A stretch of DNA of 33,289 nt from Candidatus Krumholzibacteriota bacterium (lineage in GTDB: Bacteria > Krumholzibacteriota > Krumholzibacteriia > Krumholzibacteriales > Krumholzibacteriaceae). The translations under genes were made by a program, and so were the position numbers. This document shows positions 3,068 through 33,289 of the stretch, piece by piece. The notes under the pieces were generated by a model. That model ran no database searches, was not told the origin of the DNA, and was given only the letters and a program-made list of their open reading frames with translations. The DNA lies in NCBI GenBank assembly GCA_030613345.1, contig JAUWMD010000002.1:1-33289 (forward strand). The letters run 5' to 3'. The number at the start of each line of letters is the position of its first letter. The first letter of the stretch is position 1.

Positions 3068-3090
3068 TCCGGAGATGAAAGACGGCAGAG

Positions 3091-19736: not shown

Positions 19737-19764
19737 TTGACTTTTTATTTTTCTATAGTAAAAT
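19737..19764 (+). promoter_or_regulatory. Near-consensus sigma70-type promoter of the hdr-mvh locus
   Basis: TTGACT (19737-19742), a 16-nt spacer, then TAAAAT (19759-19764). It sits in a 262-bp AT-rich gap about 77 nt upstream of hdrC. Confidence 0.6.
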
Positions 19765-19841
19765 TCCTGTTGCGACCTTCTGTTTTTTTTGCCTCTCAAT
19801 CGGTTCAGGAGCCTTGAAAAGCCTGCGAGGTTGGTAGTTAA

Positions 19842-20420
19842 ATGCTTAAAAGAGAAGTGGTTTACGAGTCTGTACTGGATCATGATTTTCTCGACGAGAT
19901 CTATTCGCTTCCCGGCGGACAAGAGATAAAGAAGTGTATCCAGTGCGGGACATGCAGCGGTTCATGCCCGCAGGGCGCCGTTATGGACTACGCTCCGAGG
20001 AAGATATTCTCCCTCATAAGGGCCGGATTCAGGGACGAGGTGCTCGAATCGAACACTATATGGTACTGCTCGTCGTGCTATACATGCGCTGTGAGATGTC
20101 CCAAGGAGATCAAGATCACCGACGTCATGTACGCCCTCAAACGCATCGCAATCAAGGAAGGCAAGGCGAAGAAAGGGAGGAAAGCGGCGATCCTTTCGAA
20201 TAATTTCGTCAGATTGGTAAACAAGTACGGGCGGAATCACGAGACAGAGCTTATGACCCGTTACATACTGTTTGCGGAGCCGCATCACGCCTTCAATTTC
20301 ATTCCCCAGGGCTGGAAGCTTTTCTCTAACGGCCGCCTGCCCATAATGCCTCACAAGATTAAGAATATCGATCAGTTACGAAAGATCCTGAAGAAGGTCG
20401 ACGAGCTGGGGGAAATATAA
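19842..20420 (+). CDS. hdrC: Heterodisulfide reductase subunit C-like (2x[4Fe-4S]), copy 1
   Basis: Cluster motifs are CIQCGTCSGSCP and CSSCYTCAVRCP, with conserved KITDVMYALKRIA. Its stop overlaps the hdrB start (TAATG). Confidence 0.9.
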   Translation: MLKREVVYESVLDHDFLDEIYSLPGGQEIKKCIQCGTCSGSCPQGAVMDYAPRKIFSLIRAGFRDEVLESNTIWYCSSCYTCAVRCPKEIKITDVMYALKRIAIKEGKAKKGRKAAILSNNFVRLVNKYGRNHETELMTRYILFAEPHHAFNFIPQGWKLFSNGRLPIMPHKIKNIDQLRKILKKVDELGEI

Positions 20421-21319
20421 TGAAGTACACTTATTATCCCGGGTGTTCCGTGAAGGCGACCGCGAATCTTTACCAGGAATCGATCGACTCCGTTACCCCC
20501 TTGCTCGGCATAGAACTCGAGGAACTGGAAGACTGGAACTGCTGCGGAGCGACAGCCTACATGTCTGTCAGGGAGCTGATGAGCTTCGCCATCTCCGCAA
20601 GGAACCTGGCGCTGGCTGAGAAGCACCACCGCGACATCGTAACTCCGTGCAGCGCCTGCTACCTCGTCCTGAAAAAGACCAACCAGTATTTCGCCGATTA
20701 TCCCAATCTGAGAAAGAAGCTCGGCCAGGCTCTCGAAGCCGGCGGTCTGAGCTACAGCGGCAACACGCGGGTCCGGCATATACTCAACGTGATCGTCAAC
20801 GATGTCGGTATGGAAAAGATCGCCGGACTGGTTAAAAAGAAGCTCAAAGGTCTCAACGTCGCTCCTTACTACGGTTGTCAGATCGTCAGGCCTCACTACT
20901 ACGGGTGTGGAGCGGACGAGGAGAATATTGATGATCCGGACAATCCGGTCAGCATGGACAGGTTGATCGAGGCAACTGGAGCCACCTGCGTCAAGTATTC
21001 GATGAAGACGAAATGTTGCGGTTCGTCTTTGATGGGTACCGAGGAAAAGCAGGCTATGAAGCTGTGCATGGAGATCCTGGCCGACGCGGAAAGCAACGGG
21101 GCTCATTGCATCGTGACGATCTGCCCGCTGTGCCAGATGAACCTCGATGTTTACCAGTCGAAGGTAAACAGGCTGTTCGGCACGAAATTCAATATTCCTG
21201 TCATATACTTCACGCAGCTGATAGGGCTGGCGTTGGACAGACCGGCGAAGGAACTCGGGCTGGGAAGGCTCGCGGTGAAGATGACCAGGCCGATGAAACA
21301 GATACTACAGGGAGCGTGA
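20420..21319 (+). CDS. hdrB: Heterodisulfide reductase subunit B-like (two CCG domains), copy 1
   Basis: The first CCG domain is YYPGCS...NCCGA...PCSACY and the second is YYGCQ...KCCGSS...CPLCQ. Confidence 0.92.
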   Translation: MKYTYYPGCSVKATANLYQESIDSVTPLLGIELEELEDWNCCGATAYMSVRELMSFAISARNLALAEKHHRDIVTPCSACYLVLKKTNQYFADYPNLRKKLGQALEAGGLSYSGNTRVRHILNVIVNDVGMEKIAGLVKKKLKGLNVAPYYGCQIVRPHYYGCGADEENIDDPDNPVSMDRLIEATGATCVKYSMKTKCCGSSLMGTEEKQAMKLCMEILADAESNGAHCIVTICPLCQMNLDVYQSKVNRLFGTKFNIPVIYFTQLIGLALDRPAKELGLGRLAVKMTRPMKQILQGA

Positions 21320-21320
21320 T

Positions 21321-23324
21321 ATGTCTGAACGTATTGGTGTATACGTCTGCCACTGCGGTACGAACATCGCCGGCAAGGTAGACATCGACGAGGTGGTCGA
21401 GTTCGCCAAAGGGCTTGATGACGTCACGCTCGTGAGGGAATACAAGTTCATGTGTTCCGATCCCGGGCAGTCGCTCATCCAGAAAGATATCGAGGATGGC
21501 CTGATCAACAGGGTCGTCGTCGCGTCCTGCTCTCCGTTGATGCACGAGAAGACATTCAGGAACGTGTGCACCCGTGGTGGCCTGAACGAATACCTCTTTA
21601 CGATGGCCAATATCCGCGAGCAGTGCTCGTGGGTGCACGTAGATGTCGAACGGACGACGGACAAGGCGAAGGACCTGATAGAAGCGGCTGTAAGAAGGAC
21701 GAGGCTCCAGGAGCCCCTGACGAAGAGGGAAGTCCCGATCAACCCGAGGACTCTGGTCATCGGCGGCGGCATAGCCGGCATACAGGCAGCGCTCGACCTT
21801 GCCGACGCCGGCAAGAATGTCGTTCTCGTCGAGAAGGAGCCCTCGATCGGCGGCCACATGGCCAAGTTCGACAAGACCTTTCCGACGCTCGATTGCTCGG
21901 CATGTATCCTGACACCAAAAATGGTATCGGTCGGCCAGCACGAGAACATCGAGCTGATGTCCTGGTCGGAGGTCGAGGATGTCGGCGGCTATGTCGGAAA
22001 CTTCAACGTCACAGTCCGAAAGAAGGCAAGGTACGTTGACGTGGATCTGTGCAACGGATGCGGCGCCTGCTGGGAGAAGTGCCCGGGAACGCGGGTGCCC
22101 CGCAAGGGCAACGTCCATGAGAAACTCTCGCTCGGACCTGTGACTTCGATATTTATACCTTTCATGCAGGCAGTGCCGGCGATCCCGGTGATAGACGCCG
22201 AAACCTGCATCCGTTTCAAGAACGGCAAGTGCGGTATCTGCGCCGAGGTATGCGAACGCAACGCGATCAAGTACGACATGGAGGACGAGTTGGTCGAGTT
22301 CGAGGTAGGCAACATCATCCTTGCCACCGGCTTCCAGCCCTTCGATCCGGCACAGATCGGGAATTATGGCTACGGGATATTCGACAACGTCCTTACCGCC
22401 GTAGAATTCGAGATAATGAACTGCGCCTCCGGCAACACGGGCGGAAATATCCTGATGGCCGACGGGACCGAACCAAAATCGATCGGAATAGTCCATTGTG
22501 TGGGAAGCCGGGACAAGAATTACAACGAATATTGTTCGAGGGTCTGCTGCATGTACGCCCTGAAATACGCGCATCTTATAAAGGAGAAGATCGATGCGGA
22601 AGTCTACGATTTCTACATCGACATGAGATGTTTCGGCAAGGGGTACGAGGAATTCTATGACAGGCTGCTGGGGGAGGACGTTAGGTTCGTTCGCGGCAAG
22701 GTGGCTGAAGTCACCGAAGTGCATCTGGAGGAGGCTGAAAGGGGAAAACTCGTCGTCAAGGTGGAGGACACGCTGGTCGGTTCGATACGCCGGATCCCGC
22801 TCGACATGGTCGTTCTATGCACTGGTCTCGAAGCGCACGAGACCCTTCCCGCCGTGGCGAATCTCTGCAACGTCAGTATCGGCAAGGACGGTTTTGTCAT
22901 AGAGAAGCATCCCAAGCTCGGCCCCGTTGCCACGGCGACGGACGGGGTTTTTATCGCAGGCGCTTGCCAGTCGCCGAAAGACATCCCCGATACGGTCGCC
23001 CAGGCTTCAGCCGCTTCGAGCGCGGTCCTGTCGATGATCACAAGGGAAAAGATCGAGATCGAATCGGCAACGGCGGAAGTAAACGAGGACAAGTGTTCGG
23101 GCTGCAAGATATGTAACACTCTGTGTCCTTATCTGGCGATCAAGTATGATGAGGAGAAAGGGGTCTCCGTCGTCAACGAGGCTCTTTGCAAGGGTTGCGG
23201 GACATGCGTTGCGGGGTGCCCCAGCAATGCGATATCGGCAAAGCATTTCCAGAACAACCAGATCCTGGCAGAAATCGAGGGGATCCTCCGCAGCAGCAGT
23301 GGACAGGCCGGAATTTTGGCTTGA
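21321..23324 (+). CDS. hdrA: Heterodisulfide reductase subunit A-like FAD/Fe-S flavoprotein, full length, copy 1
   Basis: The N-terminal Cys cluster is VYVCHCGTNIAG..FMCSDPG..SCSPLMHE..REQCSW, and the FAD fold is GGGIAGIQAALDLA..GGHM..FDKTFPTLDCSACILTPKM. The inserted ferredoxin is CNGCGACWEKCP...CIRFKNGKCGICAEVC. The C-terminal ferredoxin is CSGCKICNTLCP...CKGCGTCVAGCP. Confidence 0.93.
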   Translation: MSERIGVYVCHCGTNIAGKVDIDEVVEFAKGLDDVTLVREYKFMCSDPGQSLIQKDIEDGLINRVVVASCSPLMHEKTFRNVCTRGGLNEYLFTMANIREQCSWVHVDVERTTDKAKDLIEAAVRRTRLQEPLTKREVPINPRTLVIGGGIAGIQAALDLADAGKNVVLVEKEPSIGGHMAKFDKTFPTLDCSACILTPKMVSVGQHENIELMSWSEVEDVGGYVGNFNVTVRKKARYVDVDLCNGCGACWEKCPGTRVPRKGNVHEKLSLGPVTSIFIPFMQAVPAIPVIDAETCIRFKNGKCGICAEVCERNAIKYDMEDELVEFEVGNIILATGFQPFDPAQIGNYGYGIFDNVLTAVEFEIMNCASGNTGGNILMADGTEPKSIGIVHCVGSRDKNYNEYCSRVCCMYALKYAHLIKEKIDAEVYDFYIDMRCFGKGYEEFYDRLLGEDVRFVRGKVAEVTEVHLEEAERGKLVVKVEDTLVGSIRRIPLDMVVLCTGLEAHETLPAVANLCNVSIGKDGFVIEKHPKLGPVATATDGVFIAGACQSPKDIPDTVAQASAASSAVLSMITREKIEIESATAEVNEDKCSGCKICNTLCPYLAIKYDEEKGVSVVNEALCKGCGTCVAGCPSNAISAKHFQNNQILAEIEGILRSSSGQAGILA

Positions 23325-23432
23325 CGTGTTAGGAGAGTTTGGTTAGCATAAGTCTCTATTTTTCACCGTTTTTCGATGGGGGGCGGAGCAGGCTTCTTCT
23401 CACGTGTAACTTGAATATTCGGCGGGAGTGGA

Positions 23433-24005
23433 ATGAATACGCACAAGCTCAAGCAAAAAGCCATCGATAAGGATTTTCTTGATGAGATTGCGCATCTGCC
23501 CGGCGGAGAGCGGATTATCGACTGCTTTCAGTGCGGTACCTGCAGCGGCTCCTGCCCGACAGCTCACGTGATGGATCACACGCCCCGCCGTCTGTTCGCG
23601 ATGGTGAAAGCGGGGTTCCGCGAGGATGTACTCAACAGCAACACATACTGGTACTGCACTTCCTGCTACATATGCACTGTCAGGTGTCCGCGCCAGATAA
23701 AGATCACCGATGTAATGTACGCGTTGAAGCGAATAGCCCTTAAGGAGAGGTACGTTCGGAGAAAGAACGCAGCGGGGGCATTTTACAGTTCCTTCGTCGA
23801 TATTGTCGAGCGGGATGGAAGGAGCTTCGAACCGGAACTGATGGTCCGCTTCATGCTGAAGACCGACCCCACGCTTCTCCTGAAAAATGCTGTGCTGGGG
23901 CTGAAGCTCATGAAACACGGCCGCCTTCCGATTCGCCGTAACAGGATCAAGGCCAGAAACGAGTTGAGAGCGATCATTCGAAAGGCAAAGAGCGAAAGCT
24001 TGTAA
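23433..24005 (+). CDS. hdrC: Heterodisulfide reductase subunit C-like, copy 2
   Basis: Cluster motifs are CFQCGTCSGSCP and CTSCYICTVRCP, with the same KITDVMYALKRIA block as copy 1. It has a TAATG overlap with hdrB2. Confidence 0.9.
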   Translation: MNTHKLKQKAIDKDFLDEIAHLPGGERIIDCFQCGTCSGSCPTAHVMDHTPRRLFAMVKAGFREDVLNSNTYWYCTSCYICTVRCPRQIKITDVMYALKRIALKERYVRRKNAAGAFYSSFVDIVERDGRSFEPELMVRFMLKTDPTLLLKNAVLGLKLMKHGRLPIRRNRIKARNELRAIIRKAKSESL

Positions 24006-24889
24006 TGGCGACGAAACAGAGCTATATCTATTATCCCGGTTGTTCGGCCGAGGCGACGGGAAAGCCGTACGAGATTTCGGCGAGAGCTGTATGCGAGCAC
24101 CTGGATATAGAGCTGAAGGAACTTGCCGACTGGAACTGCTGCGGCGCTACGGCTTATCTCTCCGTCGAGGATATTGCCTCGATGGCGGTAGCCGCGAGAA
24201 ATCTGGCCATCGCCGAATCGACCGGACTCGACCTCATTACGCCATGCAGCGCCTGCTATATCACGCTGAGCAAGGTCGACCACTATTTCGAAGATTATCC
24301 GGACATACGTACGAAGATCAACAACGCACTCTCCGCCGCGGGACTGGAATACAAAGGGGGAGTAAATGTCCGGCACCTCCTGTATGTATTTTCCGAAGAC
24401 ATCGGGATGGAACGCCTCTCCGGCATGGTCAGGGCGGATTTGTCTTTGAGGGTGGCTCCGTACTACGGCTGCCAGGTCGTAAGACCGTTCACCGAAAGGG
24501 ACAGCCCAGATGTCCCGTTCGCGATGGACGAAATCATCTCAGCCCTTGGCGGCGATGTCGTGGATTATCCTCTCAAGACAAAATGCTGCAGCGGAGCGTT
24601 GATCGGCATCGACGAAAAAACCGCTCTGGGTCTCGCGAAGCCGCTCATCGAATGCGCCGTACGCAGCGGCGCCGACTGCATAGTGACATGCTGCCCCCTG
24701 TGTCAGCTCAATCTTGACGCCTACCAGTACAAGATCAACAAGGTATACGGGACGAATTACCATATTCCAGTGTTGTTTTTCACGCAATTGATCGGGCTCG
24801 CGTTCGGTATCGACGAGGGAAGACTCGGTCTGAATATGAACATTGTGCCGTACAGGCCGGCCGCTAGAGCGAAAGGTGCTTCAGGATGA
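24005..24889 (+). CDS. hdrB: Heterodisulfide reductase subunit B-like, copy 2
   Basis: The CCG domains are YYPGCS...NCCGA...PCSACY and YYGCQ...KCCSGA...CPLCQ. It has an ATGA overlap with the next gene. Confidence 0.92.
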   Translation: MATKQSYIYYPGCSAEATGKPYEISARAVCEHLDIELKELADWNCCGATAYLSVEDIASMAVAARNLAIAESTGLDLITPCSACYITLSKVDHYFEDYPDIRTKINNALSAAGLEYKGGVNVRHLLYVFSEDIGMERLSGMVRADLSLRVAPYYGCQVVRPFTERDSPDVPFAMDEIISALGGDVVDYPLKTKCCSGALIGIDEKTALGLAKPLIECAVRSGADCIVTCCPLCQLNLDAYQYKINKVYGTNYHIPVLFFTQLIGLAFGIDEGRLGLNMNIVPYRPAARAKGASG

Positions 24890-26233: not shown

Positions 26234-26239
26234 GACGCC

Positions 26240-28141
26240 ATGTCGGTTGAAACGAATATTCGTTTCCAGTCTCCTCCAGAGCTTTCCGCTTTTCGTGACC
26301 GGCTGAGCTCCGAGCGCAGGGATGACATTAACAGGATCACGATATGCGCTGGAACGGGATGTGTCGCCAAGGGAAGCATACGTGTGTTTGAGAAATTTAC
26401 CGAGGCGATCGAATCCCGTCAGCTCGACGCGACGGTCGAGCTGAAGATTTCAGGTTGCCACGGCTTTTGCGAGAATGGCCCCCTCGTCGTCATGAAACCG
26501 GCAGGCATCCTGTACATGGAGGTAAGAGAGCGGGACGTGGATGATATCGTCGAAAAAACAGTTACAACCGGCGAAATCATCGAAAGACTCCTGTACAAGG
26601 ATCCGGTTTCGGGCGAACGAGCACGGAACGAGGATGAGATCCCTTTCTACAAGAAACAGATGCGCGTCGTTCTACGCAATATCGGCAAGATCGATCCCAA
26701 CAACATCGATGATTACATAGCCGTCGGCGGCTATTCCTCGCTCGCCAAGGTTCTTTCCGGTCTCCAGCCTGAAGAGGTCATCTCGATGATCGAGCGATCG
26801 GGGCTGCGCGGACGAGGAGGGGGAGGATTCCCGACGGGCAGGAAATGGAGATCGTGCAGGAATGCACCGGGGGACATCCACTATGTCGTTTGCAACGGTG
26901 ATGAAGGAGATCCCGGAGCGTTCATGGACCGAAGTCTAATGGAAGGGGATCCGCACAGTATTCTGGAAGGAATGATCATCGGCGCATACGCCATCGGTGC
27001 GGAAGACGGGTTCGTTTACGTACGTATGGAGTATCCCCTCGCGATCGAGCGCCTGTTGAATGCGATACGGGATGCGGAGGTGTACGGACTTCTTGGTGGG
27101 AACATACTCGGATCCGGCTTTGATTTCAGGATCAGGATCAACAGGGGGGGCGGAGCGTTCGTGTGCGGTGAGTCTACGGCGCTGATGGCATCTCTGGAAG
27201 GGAGGGCCGGCGAACCCCGGGCGAAATACATACATACCGTCGAGAAGGGCCTCTGGGATAAACCGACGAACCTGAACAACGTCGAAACATGGGCAAATGT
27301 TCCGCCCATCATCGAGCGGGGCCCCGAATGGTTCAGTTCCCTGGGAACTGATGGCAGCAAGGGAACGAAGGTGTTCTCACTCGTTGGCAAGGTGAAGAAC
27401 ACGGGTCTCGTCGAGGTGCCCATGGGAATCACGCTTCGTGAGATCCTTTTCGATATCGGTGGGGGCGTCAAGGGCACGAAAAAATTCAAGGCTGTTCAGA
27501 CTGGCGGCCCATCCGGCGGATGCCTCGTCGTCGATGTAGAGGAGAAGGGAAAGAAGGGCGCGTTCAACTTGATCGATCTCCCGGTAGATTTCGACCGGTT
27601 GACAGAGGTCGGATCGATGATGGGATCCGGCGGGATGATCGTTATGGATGAGGATGACTGCATGGTCGATGTCGCCAAATATTTCCTCAGCTTCCTGAAA
27701 GAGGAATCGTGCGGCAAATGCGTACCGTGCAGAGAGGGAATACGACACATGCTCACGATACTCGACAGGATCACGAACGGAGAGGGAAGCGCGGAGGATC
27801 TGCAGCTGCTCGAGGAGCTTGCTGAAACGATAGCCGAAGCGTCGCTCTGCGCTCTTGGAACCCAGGCGCCAAATCCGATCCTGAGCACTTTGAACTATTT
27901 CAGATCCGAATACGAAGCGCACATATTCGAAGGGAAGTGCCCAGCGGGGGTATGCAAGCAGCTGGTGACATACTCGATATCGGCGGATAACTGTACCGGC
28001 TGCACACTCTGCGCGAAGAACTGTCCGGCCGGTTGCATCAGCGGCGAGCCGAAGGAATTGCACACCCTTGATTCGAGCACATGTATCAAGTGCGGTATCT
28101 GTTACGACGTGTGCAATTTCGACGCGGTGATCAGGAGATAA
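26240..28141 (+). CDS. nuoF: NuoF/HydB-type NAD(H)-binding FMN Fe-S flavoprotein with an N-terminal [2Fe-2S] domain and a C-terminal 2x[4Fe-4S] domain
   Basis: The N-terminal domain carries ICAGTGC...SGCHGFC. The core carries GLRGRGGGGFPTGRKW (FMN), VVCNGDEGDPGAF (NADH) and ESCGKCVPCREG...LCALG (the N3-type cluster). The C-terminus carries CTGCTLCAKNCP and CIKCGICYDVC. Confidence 0.92.
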   Translation: MSVETNIRFQSPPELSAFRDRLSSERRDDINRITICAGTGCVAKGSIRVFEKFTEAIESRQLDATVELKISGCHGFCENGPLVVMKPAGILYMEVRERDVDDIVEKTVTTGEIIERLLYKDPVSGERARNEDEIPFYKKQMRVVLRNIGKIDPNNIDDYIAVGGYSSLAKVLSGLQPEEVISMIERSGLRGRGGGGFPTGRKWRSCRNAPGDIHYVVCNGDEGDPGAFMDRSLMEGDPHSILEGMIIGAYAIGAEDGFVYVRMEYPLAIERLLNAIRDAEVYGLLGGNILGSGFDFRIRINRGGGAFVCGESTALMASLEGRAGEPRAKYIHTVEKGLWDKPTNLNNVETWANVPPIIERGPEWFSSLGTDGSKGTKVFSLVGKVKNTGLVEVPMGITLREILFDIGGGVKGTKKFKAVQTGGPSGGCLVVDVEEKGKKGAFNLIDLPVDFDRLTEVGSMMGSGGMIVMDEDDCMVDVAKYFLSFLKEESCGKCVPCREGIRHMLTILDRITNGEGSAEDLQLLEELAETIAEASLCALGTQAPNPILSTLNYFRSEYEAHIFEGKCPAGVCKQLVTYSISADNCTGCTLCAKNCPAGCISGEPKELHTLDSSTCIKCGICYDVCNFDAVIRR

Positions 28142-28149
28142 GGATTTAG

Positions 28150-29925
28150 ATGGAAGAAAAGGAAGCAAGTCAGGTTCTCGTGCATCTGGAAGTCGACGGG
28201 AAATCCGTATCCCTCGCTGAGGGTTCCACGATCCTCGATGCGGCCAAACTGCTCGGCGTACAAATCCCGACGCTGTGCTATACGCCTCTGGTCGAGCCAT
28301 ACGCCGCATGCCGCCTCTGTTCCGTCGAGGTCGAGTATCCCCGCGGCGGAGGCAAGGTCGTGACCGCCTGCAATTACCAGGTATGGGACGGTATCAAGGT
28401 GCGCACGGACACCGACAAGATACGTCGTATTCGCGGCATGATCGTAGAAATGCTCCTCGCGCGATGCCCGGATATCCAGGTACTGAAAGATCTCGCCGAA
28501 GAATACGGTATCGAGAAGGTTCGTCTCGAGAAGCAGGAAGAGGGGTGCATTCTCTGCGGCCTCTGCGTGCGGGTCTGCGCAGAGCTAGTCGGGGCGCATG
28601 CGATCTCATTTGCGGGCAGAGGCCTCGACCGCCGGGTAGCGACTCCGTACGACAAGTCGAGTGACGCCTGTATCGCGTGCGGTGCATGCGCACTGGTATG
28701 CCCGACGAAGATCATTCATGTCGAGGATCAGGAAGGTCGCGAAATCATCCATGAAGAACTCTCTCTGGGACCTTCCAAAGCGATCACCCTGCCGTTTATG
28801 CAGGCGGTGCCGAATATACCATATATCGACACGGAACATTGCATACATTTCCAGACAGGTGAGTGTGGGTACTGCGCGAAGATCTGCGACAGGGATGCGA
28901 TCGATTACGAATTGCAGGAAGAAACGATCGAGGTGGATGTGGGGAATATAATCATGGCGACGGGCTTCGAACTGTTCGACCCTTCCGTAATGGGACAATA
29001 CGGCTACGGGCGCCTGAAAAACGTGGTAACCTCGCTCGAATTCGAGCATCTGAACTGCGCCGCGGGACCAACCGGCGGACGGATCCTGATGACCGACGGC
29101 GGAGAGCCGTCGAGTGTCGGAATCATACACTGCGTCGGAAGCAGGGACGAGAATTATTACAAGTACTGTTCCCGGGTATGCTGCATGTATGCGCTGAAAT
29201 ACGCGCACCTGATAAAGGAAAAGACAGATGCGGACGTCTATAGTTTTTACATCGATATGAGATGCTTCGGAAAGGGATACGAGGAATTCTACCACAGGCT
29301 GCTCGAGGAAGGGGTCCAGTTCATCAGGGGACGGGCGGCGGAGATCACCGATTACGCGATAGATTCCGACGAAGAGGGAAAGCTGATTGTCCTCTGCGAG
29401 GATACCCTGATAGGCGCCCTTCGCCGGATACCTCTCGATATGGTGGTGTTGTGCTCCGCCATGAAATCGAATGAGGATGCCAAGGAGCTGTCGCGAATAT
29501 TCTCGTGCAGCCTGGGAAGCGATGGCTTCTTCATTGAGAAACATCCGAAACTCGCACCGGTATCCACTACTTCCGACGGAGTATTCATCGCCGGCGGCTG
29601 TCAGGGTCCGAAGGATATTCCGGATACCGTGGCTCAGGGAGCGGCGGCTGCAGCCGAAGTCCTTTCGCTGATTGACAGGAAAGAAGTCGAGGTCGAAGCG
29701 GCGATCGCTGTCGTGGACGAGGATCGATGCTCCGGATGCAAACTGTGCAACACGCTCTGTCCGTACCTCGCTGTCAAGTACGATGAGGAAAAAGGCGTTT
29801 CCGTGGTGAATGAAGCGCTCTGCAAGGGATGCGGTACCTGTGCCGCGGGATGTCCGAGTAACGCCATATCCGCGAGACACTTCGAGAACAGACAGATATT
29901 CGCCGAGATAGAAGGTCTTCTTTGA
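28150..29925 (+). CDS. hdrA: Fusion protein: NuoG/HydA-N-terminal-type [2Fe-2S] + 2x[4Fe-4S] module (aa 1-200) joined to the HdrA C-terminal half (aa ~201-591)
   Basis: The N-terminal module carries CYTPLVEPYAACRLCSVEV..TACNY, CILCGLCVRVC and CIACGACALVCP (28669-28704). From HEELSLGP (nt 28750) it is colinear with HdrA1 from HEKLSLGP (nt 22116) to the C-terminus. Shared blocks are CIHFQTGECGYCAKIC (28840-28887), IHCVGSRD, CSRVCCMYALKYAHLIKEK, DMRCFGKGYEEFY, GVFIAGGCQGPKDIPDTVAQ and CSGCKLCNTLCP...CKGCGTCAAGCP. Confidence 0.88.
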   Translation: MEEKEASQVLVHLEVDGKSVSLAEGSTILDAAKLLGVQIPTLCYTPLVEPYAACRLCSVEVEYPRGGGKVVTACNYQVWDGIKVRTDTDKIRRIRGMIVEMLLARCPDIQVLKDLAEEYGIEKVRLEKQEEGCILCGLCVRVCAELVGAHAISFAGRGLDRRVATPYDKSSDACIACGACALVCPTKIIHVEDQEGREIIHEELSLGPSKAITLPFMQAVPNIPYIDTEHCIHFQTGECGYCAKICDRDAIDYELQEETIEVDVGNIIMATGFELFDPSVMGQYGYGRLKNVVTSLEFEHLNCAAGPTGGRILMTDGGEPSSVGIIHCVGSRDENYYKYCSRVCCMYALKYAHLIKEKTDADVYSFYIDMRCFGKGYEEFYHRLLEEGVQFIRGRAAEITDYAIDSDEEGKLIVLCEDTLIGALRRIPLDMVVLCSAMKSNEDAKELSRIFSCSLGSDGFFIEKHPKLAPVSTTSDGVFIAGGCQGPKDIPDTVAQGAAAAAEVLSLIDRKEVEVEAAIAVVDEDRCSGCKLCNTLCPYLAVKYDEEKGVSVVNEALCKGCGTCAAGCPSNAISARHFENRQIFAEIEGLL

Positions 29926-29962
29926 GCTTGAAATAAGATAAACAGATGGAAGGGATGATGCG

Positions 29963-30448
29963 ATGAGTTTCGAGCCTAGGATAGTCGGATTCCTCTGCAA
30001 CTGGTGTTCTTACACGGGGGCCGATCTCGCCGGGACGGCAAGGATCAAGTACGCTCACAACATCAGGTCTATCAGAGTGATGTGCAGCGGCAGGATCGAG
30101 CCGACCTACATCATGAAGGCGCTCTATGAAGGCGCGGATGGGGTGCTTATCGCTGGTTGTCATCCTGGAGATTGCCACTATCAGGAAGGCAATTACAAGG
30201 CGCTCAGGCGGTACATGCTTCTGAAACGTATCCTGTCCGAATACGGCATCGAACCGGAGCGCCTCAGGCTCGAATGGGTGGCGGCATCGGAGGGAGAACG
30301 ATTCGCCAGGATCGTTGACGATTTCACAGAGCAGTTACGGAAACTTGGTCCGCTTGCCATAAAGGAATCGATCGCCGAAGCGATGAAGGACGACATTGAT
30401 CCTCATGAAGCTCACAACGTAGAAAGCGGTGAGGCAGATGAAGCTTAA
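29963..30448 (+). CDS. mvhD: MvhD/FlpD-type hydrogenase delta subunit ([2Fe-2S] electron-transfer protein)
   Basis: It carries IVGFLCNWCSYTGADLAG...IRVMCSGRIEP...GADGVLIAGCHPGDCHYQEGN, the canonical MvhD pattern. Confidence 0.9.
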   Translation: MSFEPRIVGFLCNWCSYTGADLAGTARIKYAHNIRSIRVMCSGRIEPTYIMKALYEGADGVLIAGCHPGDCHYQEGNYKALRRYMLLKRILSEYGIEPERLRLEWVAASEGERFARIVDDFTEQLRKLGPLAIKESIAEAMKDDIDPHEAHNVESGEADEA

Positions 30449-31391
30449 AGGCGGTATCTACTGGGGAGCTGGATGTGGCGGTTGCGATGTCGCCGTGCTC
30501 GACCTCCATGAAAAAATCCTCGATGTAGCCGAGAAGATGGACCTGCTGTTCTGGCCCATCGCACTCGATTTCAAATACGACGATGTCCGGGCCATGGAAG
30601 ACGCCGAGTTCGATATCGTCCTGTACAACGGGGCGATCAGAAATTCTGAAAACGAAGAGATGGCCAAACTCCTCAGGCGCAAGTCGAAGACCATGGTCGC
30701 CCTCGGAGCCTGTGCTCATATCGGCGGGCTGCCCAGCCTGGCCAACTATCACACGAAGCAGTCAGTGTTGGAGCGAGTCTACTTGGAGACTGAATCGAAC
30801 GAAAATCCCGACGGCACAATGCCGTTGGAGAGGTCGACTGTGGACGGAAACGAGCTTGAGCTTCCGAGATTCTACAACACTGTCAAGACGCTCGATCAGG
30901 TCGTCGACGTTGATTACTATATTCCCGGTTGCCCACCCGTTCCTGAACAGATATTTTCTGCCCTTTCCGCCGTTTTCATCGGTGAGCTTCCCCCGAAAGG
31001 GTCTGTGATCGGGGCCGGTACTAAAACCCTCTGCGACGAGTGCCCGCACGAGAAGGAAGAGAAAGAGATAAGCATTATCAAGCGGCCTCTCGAGATGATC
31101 CCCGAGCCGGGGAAATGCCTGCTCGAACAGGGTCTCATCTGTCTCGGGCCGGTCACGAGGGAGGGGTGCGGCGCCAGGTGCATCAACTCCGGTGTGCCGT
31201 GCAGGGGATGTTACGGTCCCCTTGATGACGTATACGATCAGGGAGTCAAGATGGTCAGCGCGCTCGCCTCGGTCCTGGAACCGAAGGAAGAGAAAGAGAT
31301 CGACAAGGTGCTCGATGGGATAGTCGATCCGCTCCGGACATTTCACAGGTTCAGCACTGCTGCTTCGATACTGAGGAGGAAAAAGGTATGA
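30438..31391 (+). CDS. mvhG: [NiFe]-hydrogenase small subunit, group 3 (MvhG-type)
   Basis: Motifs are GCGGCDVAVLD, GACAHIGG, YIPGCPP, CDECPH and CLGPVTREGCGARCINSGVPCRGCYGP. The ATG at 30438 is preferred, and the tracked GTG at 30429 is also possible. The gene overlaps the end of mvhD. Confidence 0.9.
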   Translation: MKLKGGIYWGAGCGGCDVAVLDLHEKILDVAEKMDLLFWPIALDFKYDDVRAMEDAEFDIVLYNGAIRNSENEEMAKLLRRKSKTMVALGACAHIGGLPSLANYHTKQSVLERVYLETESNENPDGTMPLERSTVDGNELELPRFYNTVKTLDQVVDVDYYIPGCPPVPEQIFSALSAVFIGELPPKGSVIGAGTKTLCDECPHEKEEKEISIIKRPLEMIPEPGKCLLEQGLICLGPVTREGCGARCINSGVPCRGCYGPLDDVYDQGVKMVSALASVLEPKEEKEIDKVLDGIVDPLRTFHRFSTAASILRRKKV

Positions 31392-32848
31392 AGCGCGTAG
31401 ATATAGATCCGATCACACGCCTCGAAGGCCATGGGAAGATAAGCATATTCATCAACGACGACGGATCGGTCGAGAACGCATACCTTCAGATTCCGGAGTT
31501 GAGGGGGTTCGAGAAATTCGTAGAGGGTCTCCCTGTGGAGGAGATCCCCCGGATCATGCCTAGGATATGCGGCGTTTGCCCGGCGGCCCATCACATGGCC
31601 GCGGGGAAAGCCGTTGACAACGTGTTTAGAGTGGAGATTCCGCTGGTAGCTAAAAAACTCCGGGAAATGTATTACATGGCGCATTATATCCATAGCCACG
31701 CCGCTCATTTCTACGCTCTCGCGGCTCCGGATTTCGTTCTCGGACCACAGGCCCCGAAGGCCGAAAGAAATGTTCTCGGGCTGATAAACAAGGTCGGATT
31801 GAAGCTCGGCAGGGAAGTGCTCAGGCAGAGAGGGATTTCGCAGGAAATACAGATTATGATAGGAGGCCGCGCCACGCATCCCGTATGGAACATTCCCGGC
31901 GGAGTGACGCGTGCACTCAGCGACGAGAACGCAGAGAAGGTCAAGAGTCTTGCCGCTGAACAGGTCGGCTTCGCAGAGCTGAGCCTGAAGTTGTTCAACG
32001 ATCTCGTATTGAGCAACAGCGACTATCTCGAGCTTATAATGGGCGATATATTCGAACAGGTGACCAACTACATGGGGCTGGTCGACGATGACAATAAGGT
32101 GAATTTCTACCATGGGAAGGTACGGGTTACGGATATAAACGGGGAAGAGTTGTTCAAGTACTCCGAACCGGAATACCTCGATTACATAGCCGAACATGTC
32201 GAACCTTGGTCCTACCTTAAATTCCCCTATATCAAGGACAGGGGCTGGAAAGGATTCGTCGAGGGCGAAGGGACTCCTCTCTTCCAGGCCAATCCGCTTC
32301 CGCGGCTCAATGCGGCGGACGGGATGGCGACACCGAAGGCTCAGGAAGAGTACGAGAAGATGTTCGAGACCGTCGGCGGAAAACCGTGCCACAAGCTGAT
32401 GGTGAACCACTGGGCGAGGCTCATAGAGATGCTCTATGCCGCCGAGCGGATGCAGGAGTTGATCAACGATCCGGAGATCACAGATCCGAACGTAAGGGTG
32501 ATCCCATCGACCACGCCGAGAGAGGGTGTGGGAATCGTCGAGGCCCCTCGCGGAACACTCACGCATCACTACTGGACCGACGAGAACGGGATCGTGACCA
32601 AGGCAAACCTGATCGTCGGGACGACGAATAACAACGCCTCGATAAACATGGCCGTCAAAAAGGCGGCCCAGAATCTCATCAAGCCGGGCGGCGAAGTGAC
32701 CGAAGGGCTGCTCAACATGGTCGAGATGGCGTTCCGTCTGTACGATCCGTGCTTCAGCTGCGCTACGCACAGTCTGCCCGGAAAGATGCCGCTTACAGTC
32801 GAGATACGCGATCTCGACGGCGAGATACTGAACGAGGTATCGAGGTAG
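31388..32848 (+). CDS. mvhA: [NiFe]-hydrogenase large subunit, group 3c (MvhA-type)
   Basis: It has N-terminal RLEGHGKI and RICGVCPAAH (L1). The C-terminal DPCFSCATH (L2) is followed by a 25-aa extension, which would be the protease substrate. It has an ATGA overlap with mvhG. Confidence 0.93.
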   Translation: MKRVDIDPITRLEGHGKISIFINDDGSVENAYLQIPELRGFEKFVEGLPVEEIPRIMPRICGVCPAAHHMAAGKAVDNVFRVEIPLVAKKLREMYYMAHYIHSHAAHFYALAAPDFVLGPQAPKAERNVLGLINKVGLKLGREVLRQRGISQEIQIMIGGRATHPVWNIPGGVTRALSDENAEKVKSLAAEQVGFAELSLKLFNDLVLSNSDYLELIMGDIFEQVTNYMGLVDDDNKVNFYHGKVRVTDINGEELFKYSEPEYLDYIAEHVEPWSYLKFPYIKDRGWKGFVEGEGTPLFQANPLPRLNAADGMATPKAQEEYEKMFETVGGKPCHKLMVNHWARLIEMLYAAERMQELINDPEITDPNVRVIPSTTPREGVGIVEAPRGTLTHHYWTDENGIVTKANLIVGTTNNNASINMAVKKAAQNLIKPGGEVTEGLLNMVEMAFRLYDPCFSCATHSLPGKMPLTVEIRDLDGEILNEVSR

Positions 32849-32878
32849 CGCATCGTGGAAGATTCCGGGAGTAATCCG

Positions 32879-33289
32879 ATGAAAACGGTTATCATCGGTC
32901 TGGGTAATACCGTCCTGAGCGACGACGGCGCCGGGGTGTATGTCGCGCGCATGTTATCCGGGAGGTTCGGAGACGACGTAACCGTTATCGAGACGGAAAG
33001 CGCAGGGATGAACCTGATGGAGATGCTCGGAGGCTTCGACAGGGCTGTTCTGGTCGACGCGATCCTTCTCGACGGCGAGGAGGCGGGTACGGTATTCCGG
33101 CTGCGTGCAGACGACCTGAAGATCACCCCCAGACTGTCTTCATGCCACGACATCGATTTAGTCACCGCCCTCGAGCTGGGAAGGCAGCTCGGAATGCATA
33201 TGCCCGGCGAGGTGACGATATTCGCCATACAGGGAGAAGACATGCTCACTCTCTACGAGGGCTGTACCCGGAAGGTGGAAGAGTCGCTT
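32879..33289 (+). CDS. Hydrogenase maturation endopeptidase (HycI/HybD/FrhD family), 3' partial; not present in the supplied ORF track
   Basis: My own translation from the ATG at 32879 (GGGAG 7 nt upstream) gives MKTVIIGLGNTVLSDDGAGVYVARML...AVLVDAILLDGEEAGTVFRL...SSCHDIDLVTALELGR... It is open for 137 codons to the window edge. GLGN..(L)SDDG.G and the downstream D...H are the family metal-ligand signatures. Confidence 0.85.
   Translation, partial: MKTVIIGLGNTVLSDDGAGVYVARMLSGRFGDDVTVIETESAGMNLMEMLGGFDRAVLVDAILLDGEEAGTVFRLRADDLKITPRLSSCHDIDLVTALELGRQLGMHMPGEVTIFAIQGEDMLTLYEGCTRKVEESL

Follow-up and report, generated by a model that had tools for sequence, protein, structure and literature searches.

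Gene content of the locus

The window, a 33,289-nucleotide stretch of DNA from a Candidatus Krumholzibacteriota bacterium, carries a locus of 13 genes, all on the + strand. Their order, taken from an open reading frame listing and Pfam/NCBIfam scans, agrees with the original prediction: hdrC1B1A1, hdrC2B2, hdrA2-N, a nuoE-like gene, a nuoF-like gene, an Fe-S::hdrA2-C fusion, mvhD, mvhG, mvhA and a HycI-type protease gene. The nuoE-like, nuoF-like and Fe-S parts are called bfuC, bfuB and bfuA below. Genes upstream of the locus are housekeeping genes, and the named relatives of the YchF protein all come from Krumholzibacteriota, in keeping with the bacterial host that had been claimed.

19737..19764, + strand: sigma-70-like promoter candidate TTGACT-N16-TAAAAT, 78 nt upstream of hdrC1 (consensus scan 10/12)
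19842..20420, + strand: hdrC1, HdrC-type 2x[4Fe-4S] subunit, 192 aa (Fer4_8/Fer4_17 matches)
20420..21319, + strand: hdrB1, HdrB-type subunit with two complete CCG domains, 299 aa (PF02754 CCG twice, E = 5.5e-28)
21321..23324, + strand: hdrA1, conventional full-length HdrA, 667 aa (end-to-end alignment with 5odc_A)
23325..23432, + strand: intergenic gap between the two Hdr sets, 108 nt
23433..24005, + strand: hdrC2, second HdrC, 190 aa (about 50% identity to HdrC1)
24005..24889, + strand: hdrB2, second HdrB with two complete CCG domains, 294 aa (PF02754 twice)
24886..25743, + strand: hdrA2-N, N-terminal fragment of a split HdrA, 285 aa (NF040770 HdrA2 profile)
25727..26233, + strand: bfuC (nuoE/hydC-like), [2Fe-2S] thioredoxin-like subunit, 168 aa (PF01257, E = 1e-48)
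26240..28141, + strand: bfuB (nuoF/hydB-like), FMN/NAD(H) subunit, 633 aa (Complex1_51K, NADH_4Fe-4S, 2Fe-2S_thioredx, Fer4)
28150..29925, + strand: bfuA::hdrA2-C fusion, 591 aa (PDB sequence matches, AF2, Foldseek)
29963..30448, + strand: mvhD, [2Fe-2S] adaptor subunit, 161 aa (PF02662 FlpD, 186.7 bits, E = 1.7e-55)
30429..31391, + strand: mvhG, [NiFe]-hydrogenase small subunit, 320 aa from GTG (PF01058)
31388..32848, + strand: mvhA, [NiFe]-hydrogenase large subunit, 486 aa (PF00374)
32879..33289, + strand: HycI-type hydrogenase maturation protease, first 137 aa, running off the window end (PF01750; TIGR00072, 93.8 bits)

The junctions overlap or are short, as had been described. From hdrC1 to the protease gene the gaps are, in order, -1, +1, +108, -1, -4, -17, +6, +8, +37, -20, -4 and +30 nt, leaving the 108 nt upstream of hdrC2 as the sole long junction. 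The reported TTGACT-N16-TAAAAT site is present upstream of hdrC1, and promoter-like sites are not enriched across the region (4 found versus 8.9 expected). In the related loci L018, L101 and L102, a -35 element GTTGACTTT and a -10 element TA[A/C]AAT are kept at equal spacing between diverged flanks, indicating a conserved footprint.

No terminator-like site was found on the + strand of the 108-nt gap, whose RNA fold is no better than those of shuffled sequences (z = -0.71) and which has no match in an Rfam search. A weak promoter-like site at 23321-23349 (9/12 consensus) is not kept in L100, and the gap could be the place of an internal start. One transcription unit over the locus is plausible. 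The window contains no dsrC, qmo, apr or metF (methylene-THF reductase) gene, as originally stated, and no thiol carrier gene is present either in the window or between mvhA and hycI of L021.

A conventional Hdr set and a second HdrCB pair

HdrA1 has the FAD site and all Fe-S motifs of a conventional HdrA, with no fused MvhD; its residues 3-659 align to residues 4-653 of the solved HdrA 5odc_A (718 bits), and it is 82% identical to HdrA of the Krumholzibacteriales MAG L001. The accompanying HdrC1, whose eight cysteines are arranged as two CxxCxxCxxxC motifs, is 80% identical to its L001 counterpart. The genes hdrC1B1A1 (set 1) are an additional conventional set, found among the loci compared in this Krumholzibacteriota lineage alone, that would use the same MvhAGD as the second set.

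The claim of two CCG-domain HdrB subunits holds, since both proteins have complete CCG pairs by PF02754 and by cysteine pattern (9, 41/42, 77, 80 and 153, 199/200, 235, 238 in HdrB1; likewise complete in HdrB2). In a neighbor-joining tree, HdrB1 clusters with HdrB of L001 and L018, and HdrB2 groups not with HdrB1 but with HdrB of a split-type operon in Sumerlaeota (L003). HdrC2 is 63% identical to the HdrC encoded ahead of the split HdrA in L100. Neither HdrB nor HdrC reaches its CoB-CoM equivalog cut-off (206 bits against 345 for HdrB1; 102 bits against 160 for HdrC1 with TIGR03290), which we count against the disulfide-linked explanation that we consider best.

A Bfu-type module within a split HdrA

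The second HdrA is encoded by two genes. HdrA2-N covers positions 1-257 of the NF040770 HdrA2 profile (379 bits). It contains the N-terminal domain, the initial, FAD-binding part of the TrxR domain and, from the inserted ferredoxin domain, the first Cys motif (CNGCGDCWEACP), plus a tail of ~20 aa. The C-terminal two thirds of HdrA2 are joined in frame to BfuA. Residues 1 to ~195 of the fusion form a BfuA/HydA N-terminal Fe-S domain, and residues ~200-591 correspond to the remainder of HdrA, which starts at the inserted ferredoxin domain's second Cys motif and runs through the C-terminal ferredoxin domain. PDB sequence matches agree with this division (9mqx_A residues 6-190, 135 bits; 5odc_A residues 245-649, 388 bits).

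The BfuA part retains ligands for clusters A1 [2Fe-2S] (C43, C54, C57, C74) and A2 and A4 [4Fe-4S] (C133-143, C174-184), without the His-ligated cluster A3. All Cys motifs of the fusion, including orphan motif 2 (C231, C239, C242, C246), are invariant across 43 homologues. Foldseek matches the AF2 model to HdrA (E = 1e-35) and to WorA (rmsd 1.4 A). The model folds into two lobes and has low confidence where they join, and the half-domain alone is poorly predicted; at a pTM of 0.44, lobe placement is uninformative.

The cut in hdrA2 falls in the loop that separates the two Cys motifs of the inserted ferredoxin domain, a point that the original prediction missed. Each fragment retains one orphan motif, and both half-motifs are conserved on the two polypeptides. 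Orphan motif 1 and a conserved tail are present on HdrA-N in every split-type locus examined, the tail measuring 21-27 aa in eight of nine split loci and 60 aa in L035. In solved HdrA-type enzymes, the inserted ferredoxin domain is the low-potential output port (PMC9012536; BCRII preprint). Inside the cut lie bfuC, bfuB and the BfuA-type Fe-S domain, and the proposal of a module inserted into HdrA2 holds.

This module had been taken for a NADH module. Its NuoE/NuoF-like identities stand, and a Pfam scan finds the NuoF FMN/NADH domains, but it is not a plain NADH dehydrogenase module. BfuB, which carries a Trx-like [2Fe-2S] domain at its N-terminus and a 2x[4Fe-4S] ferredoxin domain at its C-terminus, has full-length matches to 9mqx_B (WorB, 790 bits), 7t2r_B (NiFe-HydB, 765) and 8a6t_B (HydB, 752). 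Alignments to WorB, NiFe-HydB and FeFe-HydB fall in the range of 650-790 bits and include both terminal Fe-S domains, whereas respiratory Nqo1 aligns at about 370 bits with core coverage only. Ligands are present for clusters B5 (C36, C41, C73, C77), B1 (C491, C494, C497, C537), the B2/Zn site (C474, H561, C567, C572) and B3/B4 (C585 to C625), and BfuC has cysteines at 92, 97, 133 and 137. The three parts are a HydCBA/Bfu-type electron-bifurcating module, with the extra Fe-S domains that mark this family.

The hydrogenase

MvhA carries the predicted L1 (RICGVCPAAHH) and L2 (DPCFSCATH) motifs and a C-terminal extension for proteolytic maturation. It scores 389 bits against the VhuA profile and at most 169 bits against those of other groups, and its PDB matches are 5odc_F (MvhA, 398 bits), 7t2r_D (390) and 5xf9_D (328). 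With 5odc_F and the VhuA profile as best matches, the protein is placed closest to group 3c rather than outside it. MvhG, whose start is more likely the ATG at 30438 than the GTG, has 12 cysteines and matches VhuG best (228 bits). The worry that MvhD might be a mis-call is dispelled by its FlpD match (E = 1.7e-55); it scores 133 bits against the VhuD profile. In the relatives L016, L018 and L100, the protease gene is followed by hypA, hypB, hypC and hypD.

Distribution of the split-type operon

Genes 4-13 (hdrC2B2, hdrA2-N, bfuC, bfuB, bfuA::hdrA2-C, mvhDGA and the protease gene) form an operon that stands by itself and is found again in several phyla; neither this conserved operon nor the extra status of set 1 was recognized originally. 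Full-length BfuA::HdrA-C fusions occur in at least 120 clusters at the 90% identity level (56-91% identity), with further examples among 50%-identity clusters, and named homologues come from Aminicenantes, Dehalococcoidia, Deltaproteobacteria and Pseudomonadota MAGs. The fusion gene is followed by mvhD in all 15 metagenome loci with enough downstream sequence, then by mvhG and mvhA in seven of nine informative loci, and bfuC and bfuB lie 5′ of it in 12 of 13.

The metagenome contigs L021, L022 and L029 contain the whole split-type operon (hdrCB, split hdrA, bfu, mvhDGA) and no full-length hdrA. L003 runs from hdrC through the fusion up to the contig end, and L100 has the 3′ end of hdrA1 followed by genes 4-13 ordered as in the window.

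These patterns bear on the view that a conventional Hdr, an NADH-dependent Hdr and a group 3c hydrogenase are mere neighbors, acting independently and forming no common complex. The 108-nt gap with its weak promoter-like site would suit such an arrangement. We nevertheless regard it as highly improbable, given the BfuA::HdrA-C fusion, the splitting of hdrA2 around the bfu genes, the overlapping or very short junctions, the unfailing position of mvhD and the gene order kept across phyla.

One HdrA core or two complexes

An A1/A2 heteromer and two complexes on one hydrogenase are both viable, with some comparative support for each. The most likely role of set 1 is in a heterodimer, in which HdrA1 would pair with HdrA2 to form the dimer core and each HdrA would have its own HdrBC. 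Hints of such a partnership come from L018, L101 and L102, tight operons with two HdrAs, a single hdrCB and a single mvh, and from L019 (Dehalococcoidia) and L030, where a split and a full-length HdrA sit beside one MvhD. Moreover, the C-terminal ferredoxin domains of HdrA1 and HdrA2 are 79% identical, whereas the other domains reach 59-68%. Since synonymous sites are saturated, this higher identity reflects shared constraint and not recent gene conversion. In BCRII, the equivalent domain hands electrons to the MvhD-like BamF (BCRII preprint).

Somewhat less probable, and still a serious contender, is a pair of complexes with no mixed core: (MvhAGD-HdrA1B1C1)2 for conventional H2:disulfide/ferredoxin bifurcation and (MvhAGD-HdrA2[split]-BfuABC-HdrB2C2)2 with NAD(H) coupling added. 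Each HdrA type occurs with Mvh alone elsewhere (hdrCBA-mvhDGA in the Krumholzibacteriota MAGs L001 and L002; the split type in L021, L022 and L029), so separate homodimeric complexes are fully possible. The window and L100 also provide a dedicated HdrCB pair per HdrA, HdrB1 and HdrB2 belong to different clades, and both HdrAs retain all homodimer motifs and the full dimer-related Cys set, with no complementary loss of the kind that would favor an obligate heterodimer. However, L018, L101 and L102 would then yield two enzymes of overlapping function from one transcript, and a split HdrA is again accompanied by a full-length one in the unrelated operons L019 and L030. The unusual constraint on the C-terminal ferredoxin domains also counts against separate complexes, although sharing MvhD would fit it too.

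Proposed electron flow

Our preferred reading, to which we give slightly better than an even chance, is that the locus encodes one modular cytoplasmic electron-bifurcating machine with HdrA1 most likely as the second protomer of an A1/A2 core. A Mvh-Hdr-Bfu supercomplex linking H2, disulfide, NAD and ferredoxin is most likely, in which the MvhAGD [NiFe]-hydrogenase is combined with disulfide reductase units of the HdrABC type and with a NAD(H)/ferredoxin module of the HydBC/Bfu type within HdrA. The ferredoxin domain of HdrA2 would be rebuilt in trans from its two halves, and clusters A4, A2 and A1 of BfuA would wire the HdrA2 flavin, through its low-potential arm, to the FMN/Fe-S core of BfuBC. 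In the H2-oxidizing direction, MvhA would take electrons from H2 and deliver them via MvhG and MvhD to the HdrA FAD; the high-potential electron would travel through HdrC to HdrB for disulfide reduction, and the low-potential electron through Bfu to reduce NAD+ and ferredoxin. On paper, reverse flow from NADH, reduced ferredoxin and thiol to H2 is equally possible.

Alternatively, the locus may encode a [NiFe] counterpart of the HydABC confurcating hydrogenase that makes H2 in fermentation, with HdrBC in a minor, regulatory or vestigial role. NADH and reduced ferredoxin would then feed BfuBC, BfuA, HdrA2, MvhD and finally MvhAG. Consistent with this scheme, only the H-cluster domain is lost from the BfuA part, and the MvhA encoded here is nearly as close to the NiFe-Bfu large subunit 7t2r_D as to 5odc_F. 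The Bfu genes of L003, L021 and L029 are accompanied by genes for DRTGG, HATPase, a HydS-like sensory [FeFe]-hydrogenase homologue and PHP, a regulator set known from HydABC loci. Lifestyle also fits: Krumholzibacteriota and Sumerlaeota have been described as anaerobes with a fermentative or versatile metabolism, and group 3c enzymes as bidirectional (PMC8092238). On the other hand, HdrB1 and HdrB2 retain all ten CCG-domain cysteines and every complete locus has an HdrCB pair, which favors a functional disulfide site. Furthermore, entry via the low-potential arm of HdrA (~-400 mV) and exit via MvhD would need no bifurcating flavin. We consider this confurcating scheme unlikely.

The only reported enzyme joining both bifurcation modules is BCRII (class II benzoyl-CoA reductase), whose wiring differs from that of Mvh-Hdr-Bfu, and we found no description in the searchable literature of Mvh-Hdr with a Bfu module wired into a split HdrA. 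The design, an Mvh-Hdr enzyme with an unrelated NADH/ferredoxin bifurcating module built in, is widespread among uncultured anaerobes.

A co-directional Hdr-hydrogenase locus

An ORF list combined with profile scans returned the same order of 13 co-directional genes as the original prediction had given, preceded by the promoter-like site that it had named:

19737–19764, + strand: promoter-like site TTGACT-N16-TAAAAT, found by sequence match
19842 to the window end, + strand: 13 genes in the order hdrC1, hdrB1, hdrA1, hdrC2, hdrB2, hdrA2-N, nuoE-like, nuoF-like, Fe-S::hdrA2-C, mvhD, mvhG, mvhA and a HycI-type protease gene, the last of which is incomplete and runs off the window end

Successive gene junctions measure -1, +1, +108, -1, -4, -17, +6, +8, +37, -20, -4 and +30 nt. 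Promoter-like sites are not enriched in this region (4 found versus 8.9 expected). Despite this, the TTGACT-N16-TAAAAT site is, by comparison of aligned loci, a phylogenetic footprint; GTTGACTTT and TA[A/C]AAT occur at constant spacing in three related loci, while the surrounding intergenic sequence has diverged. For an internal promoter in the 108-nt gap, the best match is weak (9/12) and is not conserved in a related locus (L100). The gap contains no terminator, significant RNA fold or Rfam family.

The 19.7 kb upstream of the locus is occupied by housekeeping genes, including those for an H+-PPase, YchF, archease/RtcB, GGT, TonB and TPR proteins. Every named relative of the window's YchF is from Krumholzibacteriota, which places the bacterial host in that phylum, and no dsrC, qmo, apr or metF (methylene-THF reductase) gene is found among these upstream genes, as had been claimed. 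No GC discontinuity marks the locus as a recent horizontal insertion with a composition shift. Two features of this upstream region deserve separate mention. At 2630–4542, adjoining ychF, an archease gene is followed directly by rtcB, so that an RNA ligase and its activator are encoded side by side, an arrangement unrelated to the hydrogenase-Hdr finding. A membrane H+/Na+-pyrophosphatase gene at 40–1401, cut by the window start so that the ORF covers profile positions 198–645, would matter to how a fermenter balances its energy.

A HydBC/Bfu-type module in place of plain NuoEF

The anatomy of the “NADH module” described in the original prediction stands, and extra Fe-S domains identify it as a bifurcating module of the HydBC/Bfu type. 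The NuoF-like protein (BfuB) aligns over its whole length (residues 9–630) at 650–790 bits to solved HydABC/Bfu-type B subunits, including WorB (9mqx_B, 790 bits), NiFe-HydB (7t2r_B, 765 bits) and FeFe-HydB (8a6t_B). The match to Nqo1 covers the core only, at ~370 bits. The hallmarks of BfuB are an FMN/NAD(H) site and clusters B1–B5, with an N-terminal Trx-like [2Fe-2S] domain, a B2/Zn-site histidine and a C-terminal 2x[4Fe-4S] domain (Schut et al. 2022, PMC9304861). Every one of these defining features is present in the window's protein. Specifically, the B5 ligands C36, C41, C73 and C77 lie in the N-terminal Trx-like [2Fe-2S] domain, the B1 ligands are C491, C494, C497 and C537, and B3/B4 are formed by C585 to C625 in the C-terminal 2x[4Fe-4S] ferredoxin domain. 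The B2/Zn site (C474, H561, C567 and C572) shows the H-x5-C-x4-C pattern also seen in Acetomicrobium mobile (H525/C531/C536). The NuoE-like protein (BfuC; PF01257) carries a single [2Fe-2S] site formed by C92, C97, C133 and C137.

The fusion protein encoded next is 591 aa long, and its first ~195 residues constitute a BfuA/HydA N-terminal Fe-S domain with cluster A1 and two [4Fe-4S] motifs but without the His-ligated A3. This cluster set resembles that of WorA and the Bam/Wor/F420 clade. WorA is also the closest solved relative of the BfuA part (rmsd 1.4 Å over 179 columns; 135 bits to 9mqx). By sequence criteria, the NuoE- and NuoF-like genes together with this Fe-S domain are a HydBC/Bfu-type bifurcating module, for which coupled turnover of NAD(H) and ferredoxin with a third substrate is predicted. 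A fragment of a respiratory NuoEFG is ruled out by the additional Fe-S domains at both termini and by the B2/Zn-site His. NADH is linked to HdrABC in bacteria by the FlxABCD-HdrABC system, although an NADH module of that type is excluded by the HydBC/Bfu-type character of the NAD(H) module, and the window contains no FlxABCD-type genes.

The second HdrA is cut within its inserted ferredoxin domain

HdrA2-N corresponds to HdrA profile positions 1–257 and ends 23 residues past CNGCGDCWEACP, which is the first Cys motif in the inserted ferredoxin domain. HdrA picks up again in the fusion protein at EELSLGPSKAITLPFMQAVP, the counterpart of EKLSLGPVTSIFIPFMQAVP in HdrA1, and the second motif (CIHFQTGECGYCAKIC) comes next. 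Because HdrA2-N ends and the fusion resumes at these points, bfuC, bfuB and the BfuA domain interrupt the inserted ferredoxin domain in the loop that connects its two halves. This domain is the low-potential output port in solved HdrA-type enzymes (PMC9012536; bioRxiv 10.64898/2026.04.10.717634).

Each HdrA2 polypeptide is consequently left with one orphan Cys half-motif. All nine of the split loci that were compared have the first, in eight of them with a tail of 21–27 aa, and the second is invariant across 43 homologues. The same split and the conserved orphan motifs recur in dozens of independent contigs, which rules out a pseudogene or an assembly error. Also invariant is K350 of the fusion protein, which matches K409 of 5odc_A, a lysine that we take to sit at the flavin. 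The analogous residue in class II benzoyl-CoA reductase (BCRII) is Lys280 of BamE (bioRxiv 10.64898/2026.04.10.717634).

An AF2 model of the fusion protein alone has a pTM of 0.44, and the placement of its lobes carries no information. Confidence is high for the BfuA lobe and for the TrxR part, but not for the junction (residues 200–222) or the orphan half-domain (223–270). Low confidence in the latter is expected if the half-domain needs its partner.

The split operon is widespread among uncultured anaerobes

At least 120 full-length relatives of the fusion protein exist as 90%-identity clusters. All of them carry the N-terminal Fer2_4 domain and are 56–91% identical to the window's protein, and they stem from Aminicenantes, Dehalococcoidia, Deltaproteobacteria and other MAGs. 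At source they are named no more precisely than “heterodisulfide reductase subunit A” or “4Fe-4S binding protein”. Further 50%-identity clusters have the same BfuA::HdrA-C junction.

A metagenome scan seeded with the BfuA part yielded 80 loci, 24 of them with the fusion. In all 15 loci that extend 600 nt or more beyond the fusion, MvhD is encoded next, and MvhG plus MvhA follow in seven of the nine that extend 3.2 kb or more. BfuC and BfuB precede the fusion in 12 of 13 loci. Three metagenome contigs (L021, L022 and L029) contain the complete operon, ordered hdrC, hdrB, hdrA-N, (regulators), bfuC, bfuB, bfuA::hdrA-C, mvhD, mvhG, mvhA and hycI, and full-length hdrA is absent from all three. A Sumerlaeota locus (L003) has this order as far as the fusion, at which point the contig stops.

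Several split-type operons carry a block of regulators between hdrA-N and bfuC that encodes DRTGG, HATPase and PHP proteins and a HydS-like sensory [FeFe]-hydrogenase homologue (Fe_hyd_lg_C plus FeS). The block occupies 2542–6581 of L003 and 3408–7296 of L021, and is missing from the window and from the related locus L018. The same set of genes is known from HydABC loci. Its presence hints at insertion of a HydABC-type operon into hdrA, accompanied by loss of the H-cluster domain.

Several variants were also encountered. In some split-type operons the gap between mvhA and the protease gene holds a Cache/HAMP sensor kinase, a sigma-54 activator, a response regulator and a hybrid kinase (L021:14707–19638). 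Five loci (L044, L061, L071, L072 and L079) encode a BfuA::HdrA-C protein of ~1090–1290 aa that is further fused to another HdrA N-terminal part (for example, L079:2544–5816). There mvhD comes next, followed by mvhG in L071, L072 and L079 and by mvhA as well in L071 and L079; these last two loci additionally have hdrC and a permuted HdrA, with the C part before the N part, downstream. A Dehalococcoidia locus (L019:5504–19008) combines a split HdrA with a 1045-aa BfuB fused to a GltD/NfnB-like domain, has a molybdopterin (Fdh-like) enzyme in place of the hydrogenase, and continues with full-length hdrA and hdrCB.

Three architectures occur in the lineage of the window. The first consists of hdrCBA-mvhDGA alone and is found in two Krumholzibacteriota MAG loci (L001 and L002), whose genes are 75–83% identical to those of the window's hdrC1B1A1 set and Mvh. 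The second, represented by L018, L101 and L102, has hdrCBA1, hdrA2-N, bfuCB, bfuA::A2-C and mvhDGA with one hdrCB, and shares upstream DUF116 and TPR genes with the window. The third, with a second hdrCB, is seen in the window and in L100, which starts at the hdrA1 3′ end and continues through a 138-nt gap into hdrC2/B2-like genes. In NJ trees, HdrB1 clusters with its counterparts in L001 and L018, HdrB2 with that of the split-type operon in L003, and MvhA falls with the window's lineage as a whole. Based on these architectures and tree placements, 23433–33289 of the window is one copy of the widespread operon, to which hdrC1B1A1 is an extra conventional set. HdrA1 itself may have been derived from a duplicated split HdrA.

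The hydrogenase resembles group 3c enzymes

MvhA contains the L1 motif RICGVCPAAHH (residues 59–69) and the L2 motif DPCFSCATH (453–461), has a 25-aa tail beyond L2, and is followed directly by the HycI-family protease gene. Group 3c large subunits are characterised by these NiFe-binding motifs (L1 RxCGxCxxxH, L2 DPCxxCxxH) and by a C-terminal extension that a HycI/HyaD-type protease removes. Compared with PDB sequences, it scores 398 bits against MvhA (5odc_F), 390 bits against the NiFe-Bfu large subunit (7t2r_D), 328 bits against group 3d (5xf9_D) and no more than 138 bits against groups 3a, 3b and 1. Among NCBIfam profiles, VhuA gives 389 bits for MvhA (others ≤169) and VhuG gives 228 bits for MvhG (others ≤90), which has 12 Cys. 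The MvhD call was sound, with a strong FlpD match of 186.7 bits. Its gene is directly upstream of mvhG, with hdr genes further upstream, and the association recurs in relatives. These best matches to MvhA/VhuA and VhuG, together with mvhD and hdr synteny, support the predicted placement of MvhA in group 3c, with the near-tie with the NiFe-Bfu large subunit as a caveat.

The mvhA genes of five related loci (L018, L004, L100, L101 and L102) have an in-frame TGA at the second Cys of L1, giving RICGV[TGA]P[A/Q]AHH. Gene callers divide MvhA into pieces of 63 and 417 aa in at least four of these loci. The TGA codon is at 13397–13399 in L018, and its equivalent in the window is TGC (31577–31579). Cys is encoded at this position in the window, L001, L002, L016, L021, L022, L025, L029 and L041. 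The in-frame TGA looks like a codon for selenocysteine at an N-terminal NiFe ligand. To our knowledge, known [NiFeSe] enzymes carry selenocysteine in the C-terminal L2 motif.

Hdr subunits and the disulfide substrate

HdrB1 and HdrB2 each match PF02754 twice and thus have two complete CCG domains, and HdrC1 and HdrC2 each have two complete CxxCxxCxxxC motifs. The 667-aa HdrA1 matches the solved HdrA 5odc_A along its entire length (718 bits) and keeps all Cys motifs, with a TrxR-like FAD domain, the N-terminal and TrxR-domain clusters, the Cys197 equivalent, and both 2x[4Fe-4S] ferredoxin domains (inserted and C-terminal). The same Cys motifs are spread over HdrA2-N and BfuA::HdrA2-C in HdrA2. 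In an NJ tree, the C part of HdrA1 is sister to the same-lineage HdrA2 C part and is nested among split-type sequences.

Scores against NCBIfam equivalogs for the methanogen enzyme are below the cut-off in every case: 206 and 220 bits versus 345 for HdrB1 and HdrB2, 102 and 96 versus 160 for HdrC1 and HdrC2, and 808 versus 1100 for HdrA1. Function as a CoM-S-S-CoB reductase is therefore unsupported. The host, moreover, is bacterial, and CoM/CoB genes are absent from the window, as originally claimed. The HdrB substrate is thus predicted to be some disulfide other than CoM-S-S-CoB. No candidate thiol carrier was found among the conserved neighbours, where the mvhA-hycI and hdrA-N-bfuC intervals of L021 and L003 hold regulators only, and an exact sequence look-up of the window's HdrB2 returned no record.

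Two HdrBC sets are also characteristic of the sHdr systems of sulfur oxidisers, which have the order hdrC1B1A-hyp-hdrC2B2, a short HdrA without ferredoxin domains and genes for lipoate-binding proteins. This reading was rejected, as both HdrAs in the window are long, methanogen-type proteins with ferredoxin domains. The sHdr HdrA-like protein 6tjr_A matches only residues 256–507 of the fusion protein (the TrxR core, 137 bits), and there is no LbpA-like gene in the window.

One A1/A2 core or two complexes

HdrA1 and HdrA2 could join in an asymmetric core or could serve two alternative complexes. Each HdrA type is found alone with Mvh in other loci and so should be able to work without the other, as independent complexes would require. 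However, loci of the L018 type encode two HdrAs for one hdrCB and one mvh, and in L019 (with its Fdh-like module) and L030 a split HdrA and a full-length one go with a single MvhD.

The C-terminal ferredoxin domains of the window's HdrA1 and HdrA2 are 79% identical, compared with 59–68% for the other domains and 66% between the A2 domain and its L018 orthologue. The 3′ ends of hdrA1 (21321–23324) and the fusion gene (28150–29925) have a nucleotide identity of 70%, and 45 of 81 codons differ synonymously. These values point to shared constraint, and the saturated synonymous sites rule out recent gene conversion. Both HdrAs retain the Cys197 equivalent and the N-terminal cysteines, so nothing forces a heterodimer. 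On balance, we slightly favour an A1/A2 core over two alternative complexes.

Comparison with known systems

All six subunit types of the MvhAGD-HdrABC complex of hydrogenotrophic methanogens (5ODC and related structures) are also encoded in the window, where MvhD, MvhG, HdrB and HdrC are complete. The window differs in its bacterial host, in HdrB and HdrC proteins that fall below the CoB-CoM cut-offs outside any CoM/CoB context, and in having two HdrCB sets and a second HdrA that is split, with BfuCBA in the inserted ferredoxin domain.

The only complex described to combine an HdrA-type flavin, a HydBC/Bfu-type module and an MvhD-like adaptor is BCRII (BamBCDEFGHI), whose BfuA homologue lacks cluster A3 as does that of the window (bioRxiv 10.64898/2026.04.10.717634; PMC9304861). 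Electrons enter BCRII through its Bfu module (BamGHI), which delivers them to the C-terminal ferredoxin domain of BamE and from there to MvhD-like BamF (bioRxiv 10.64898/2026.04.10.717634). In the window, by contrast, BfuA is covalently part of the inserted ferredoxin domain, on the low-potential output arm, and the hydrogenase is on the MvhD input side. There is also no tungsten enzyme, the HdrB CCG motifs are intact, unlike those of BamD, and HdrA is split where BamE is a fused double HdrA.

NiFe-HydABCSL (NiFe-Bfu) of A. mobile likewise joins a [NiFe] hydrogenase to BfuABC, but there the hydrogenase docks straight on BfuA without Hdr or MvhD (7T2R; PMC8880783). The window places HdrA, MvhD and HdrBC between hydrogenase and Bfu, and lacks the A3 cluster that NiFe-Bfu uses. 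WorABCSL of the same organism (9MQX; PMC12318220), the closest solved relative of both BfuB and the BfuA part, has A1, A2 and A4 without A3, as in the window, and its partner docks at A4. That partner is a tungsten aldehyde oxidoreductase attached through an adaptor helix, whereas the window's is HdrA fused in frame. Finally, HdrA9-11 of ANME-1 carry an NAD(P)H-linked, bifurcation-type module at the same site in the inserted ferredoxin domain, although this consists of just one NfnB-like domain (~500 aa) and leaves HdrA a single polypeptide (PMC9012536). The window has instead a three-gene insertion of ~1000 aa that leaves HdrA as two proteins, in a bacterial, Mvh-linked setting.

Proposed electron paths

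Cofactor-binding motifs, the gene fusion and conserved synteny are the observations on which the following scheme is built. The two halves of the inserted ferredoxin domain would reassemble from two polypeptides, and BfuA clusters A4, A2 and A1 would connect the BfuBC core with the low-potential arm of the HdrA2 flavin. Electrons from H2 would pass through MvhA, MvhG and MvhD to the HdrA FAD, from which the high-potential electron would go to a disulfide at HdrB and the low-potential electron to Bfu for reduction of NAD+ and ferredoxin. By arithmetic on quoted potentials (H2 -414 mV, disulfide ~-140 mV, NAD ~-280 to -320 mV and ferredoxin ~-450 to -500 mV; PMC9304861 and related papers), this cascade would release more free energy for each H2 than the canonical reaction does, and therefore could run at lower H2. 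A serious rival is the reverse direction, in which NADH, reduced ferredoxin and a thiol would be used to form H2 in a confurcating role like that of HydABC.

Significance

A full-text literature search found no description of a split HdrA or of an Hdr-Bfu, Mvh-Bfu or HdrA-NuoF system, although an earlier mention in reviews of HdrA modules is possible. Bam-Bfu is the sole HdrA-containing type in a survey of the Bfu family (PMC9304861), and a 2026 structural preprint states that two distinct bifurcation modules in one complex were unreported before BCRII (bioRxiv 10.64898/2026.04.10.717634). A survey of Sumerlaeota genomes read mvhADG plus hdrABC2 as conventional Mvh-Hdr and does not mention a split HdrA or Bfu (PMC8092238). 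The system is accordingly regarded as a modular combination of bifurcation modules that were already known.

It is quite possible, if short of probable, that this locus represents a second natural joining, after BCRII, of two unrelated bifurcation devices in one enzyme, an HdrA-type FAD site and a HydBC/Bfu-type FMN site. The topology would be opposite, with Bfu on the low-potential output arm of HdrA and a [NiFe] hydrogenase as input, so that one bifurcation would be stacked on another to link H2, a disulfide, NAD and ferredoxin in a widespread family. In the window's lineage, it may also operate around an asymmetric A1/A2 core. The family spans uncultured anaerobes of the window's Krumholzibacteriota lineage, Sumerlaeota, Aminicenantes, Dehalococcoidia and Deltaproteobacteria, and has hitherto been filed as ordinary MvhADG-HdrABC. 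Although the anatomy is as first noted, the significance of the locus moves away from two Hdr sets plus an NADH module.

Strict anaerobes obtain their low-potential reductant mainly through flavin-based electron bifurcation. The gene fusion in this locus and its many relatives indicate that HdrA-type and HydBC-type modules have been joined in hydrogenase-linked Hdr too, through a different HdrA port from that used by BCRII. If biochemistry bears out the proposed reading, the products of bacterial “group 3c” hydrogenases in metagenome models would include NADH as well as ferredoxin, and the family would offer both a natural test case for the serial coupling of two bifurcating centres and a tractable system for studying an HdrA dimer that may be asymmetric.
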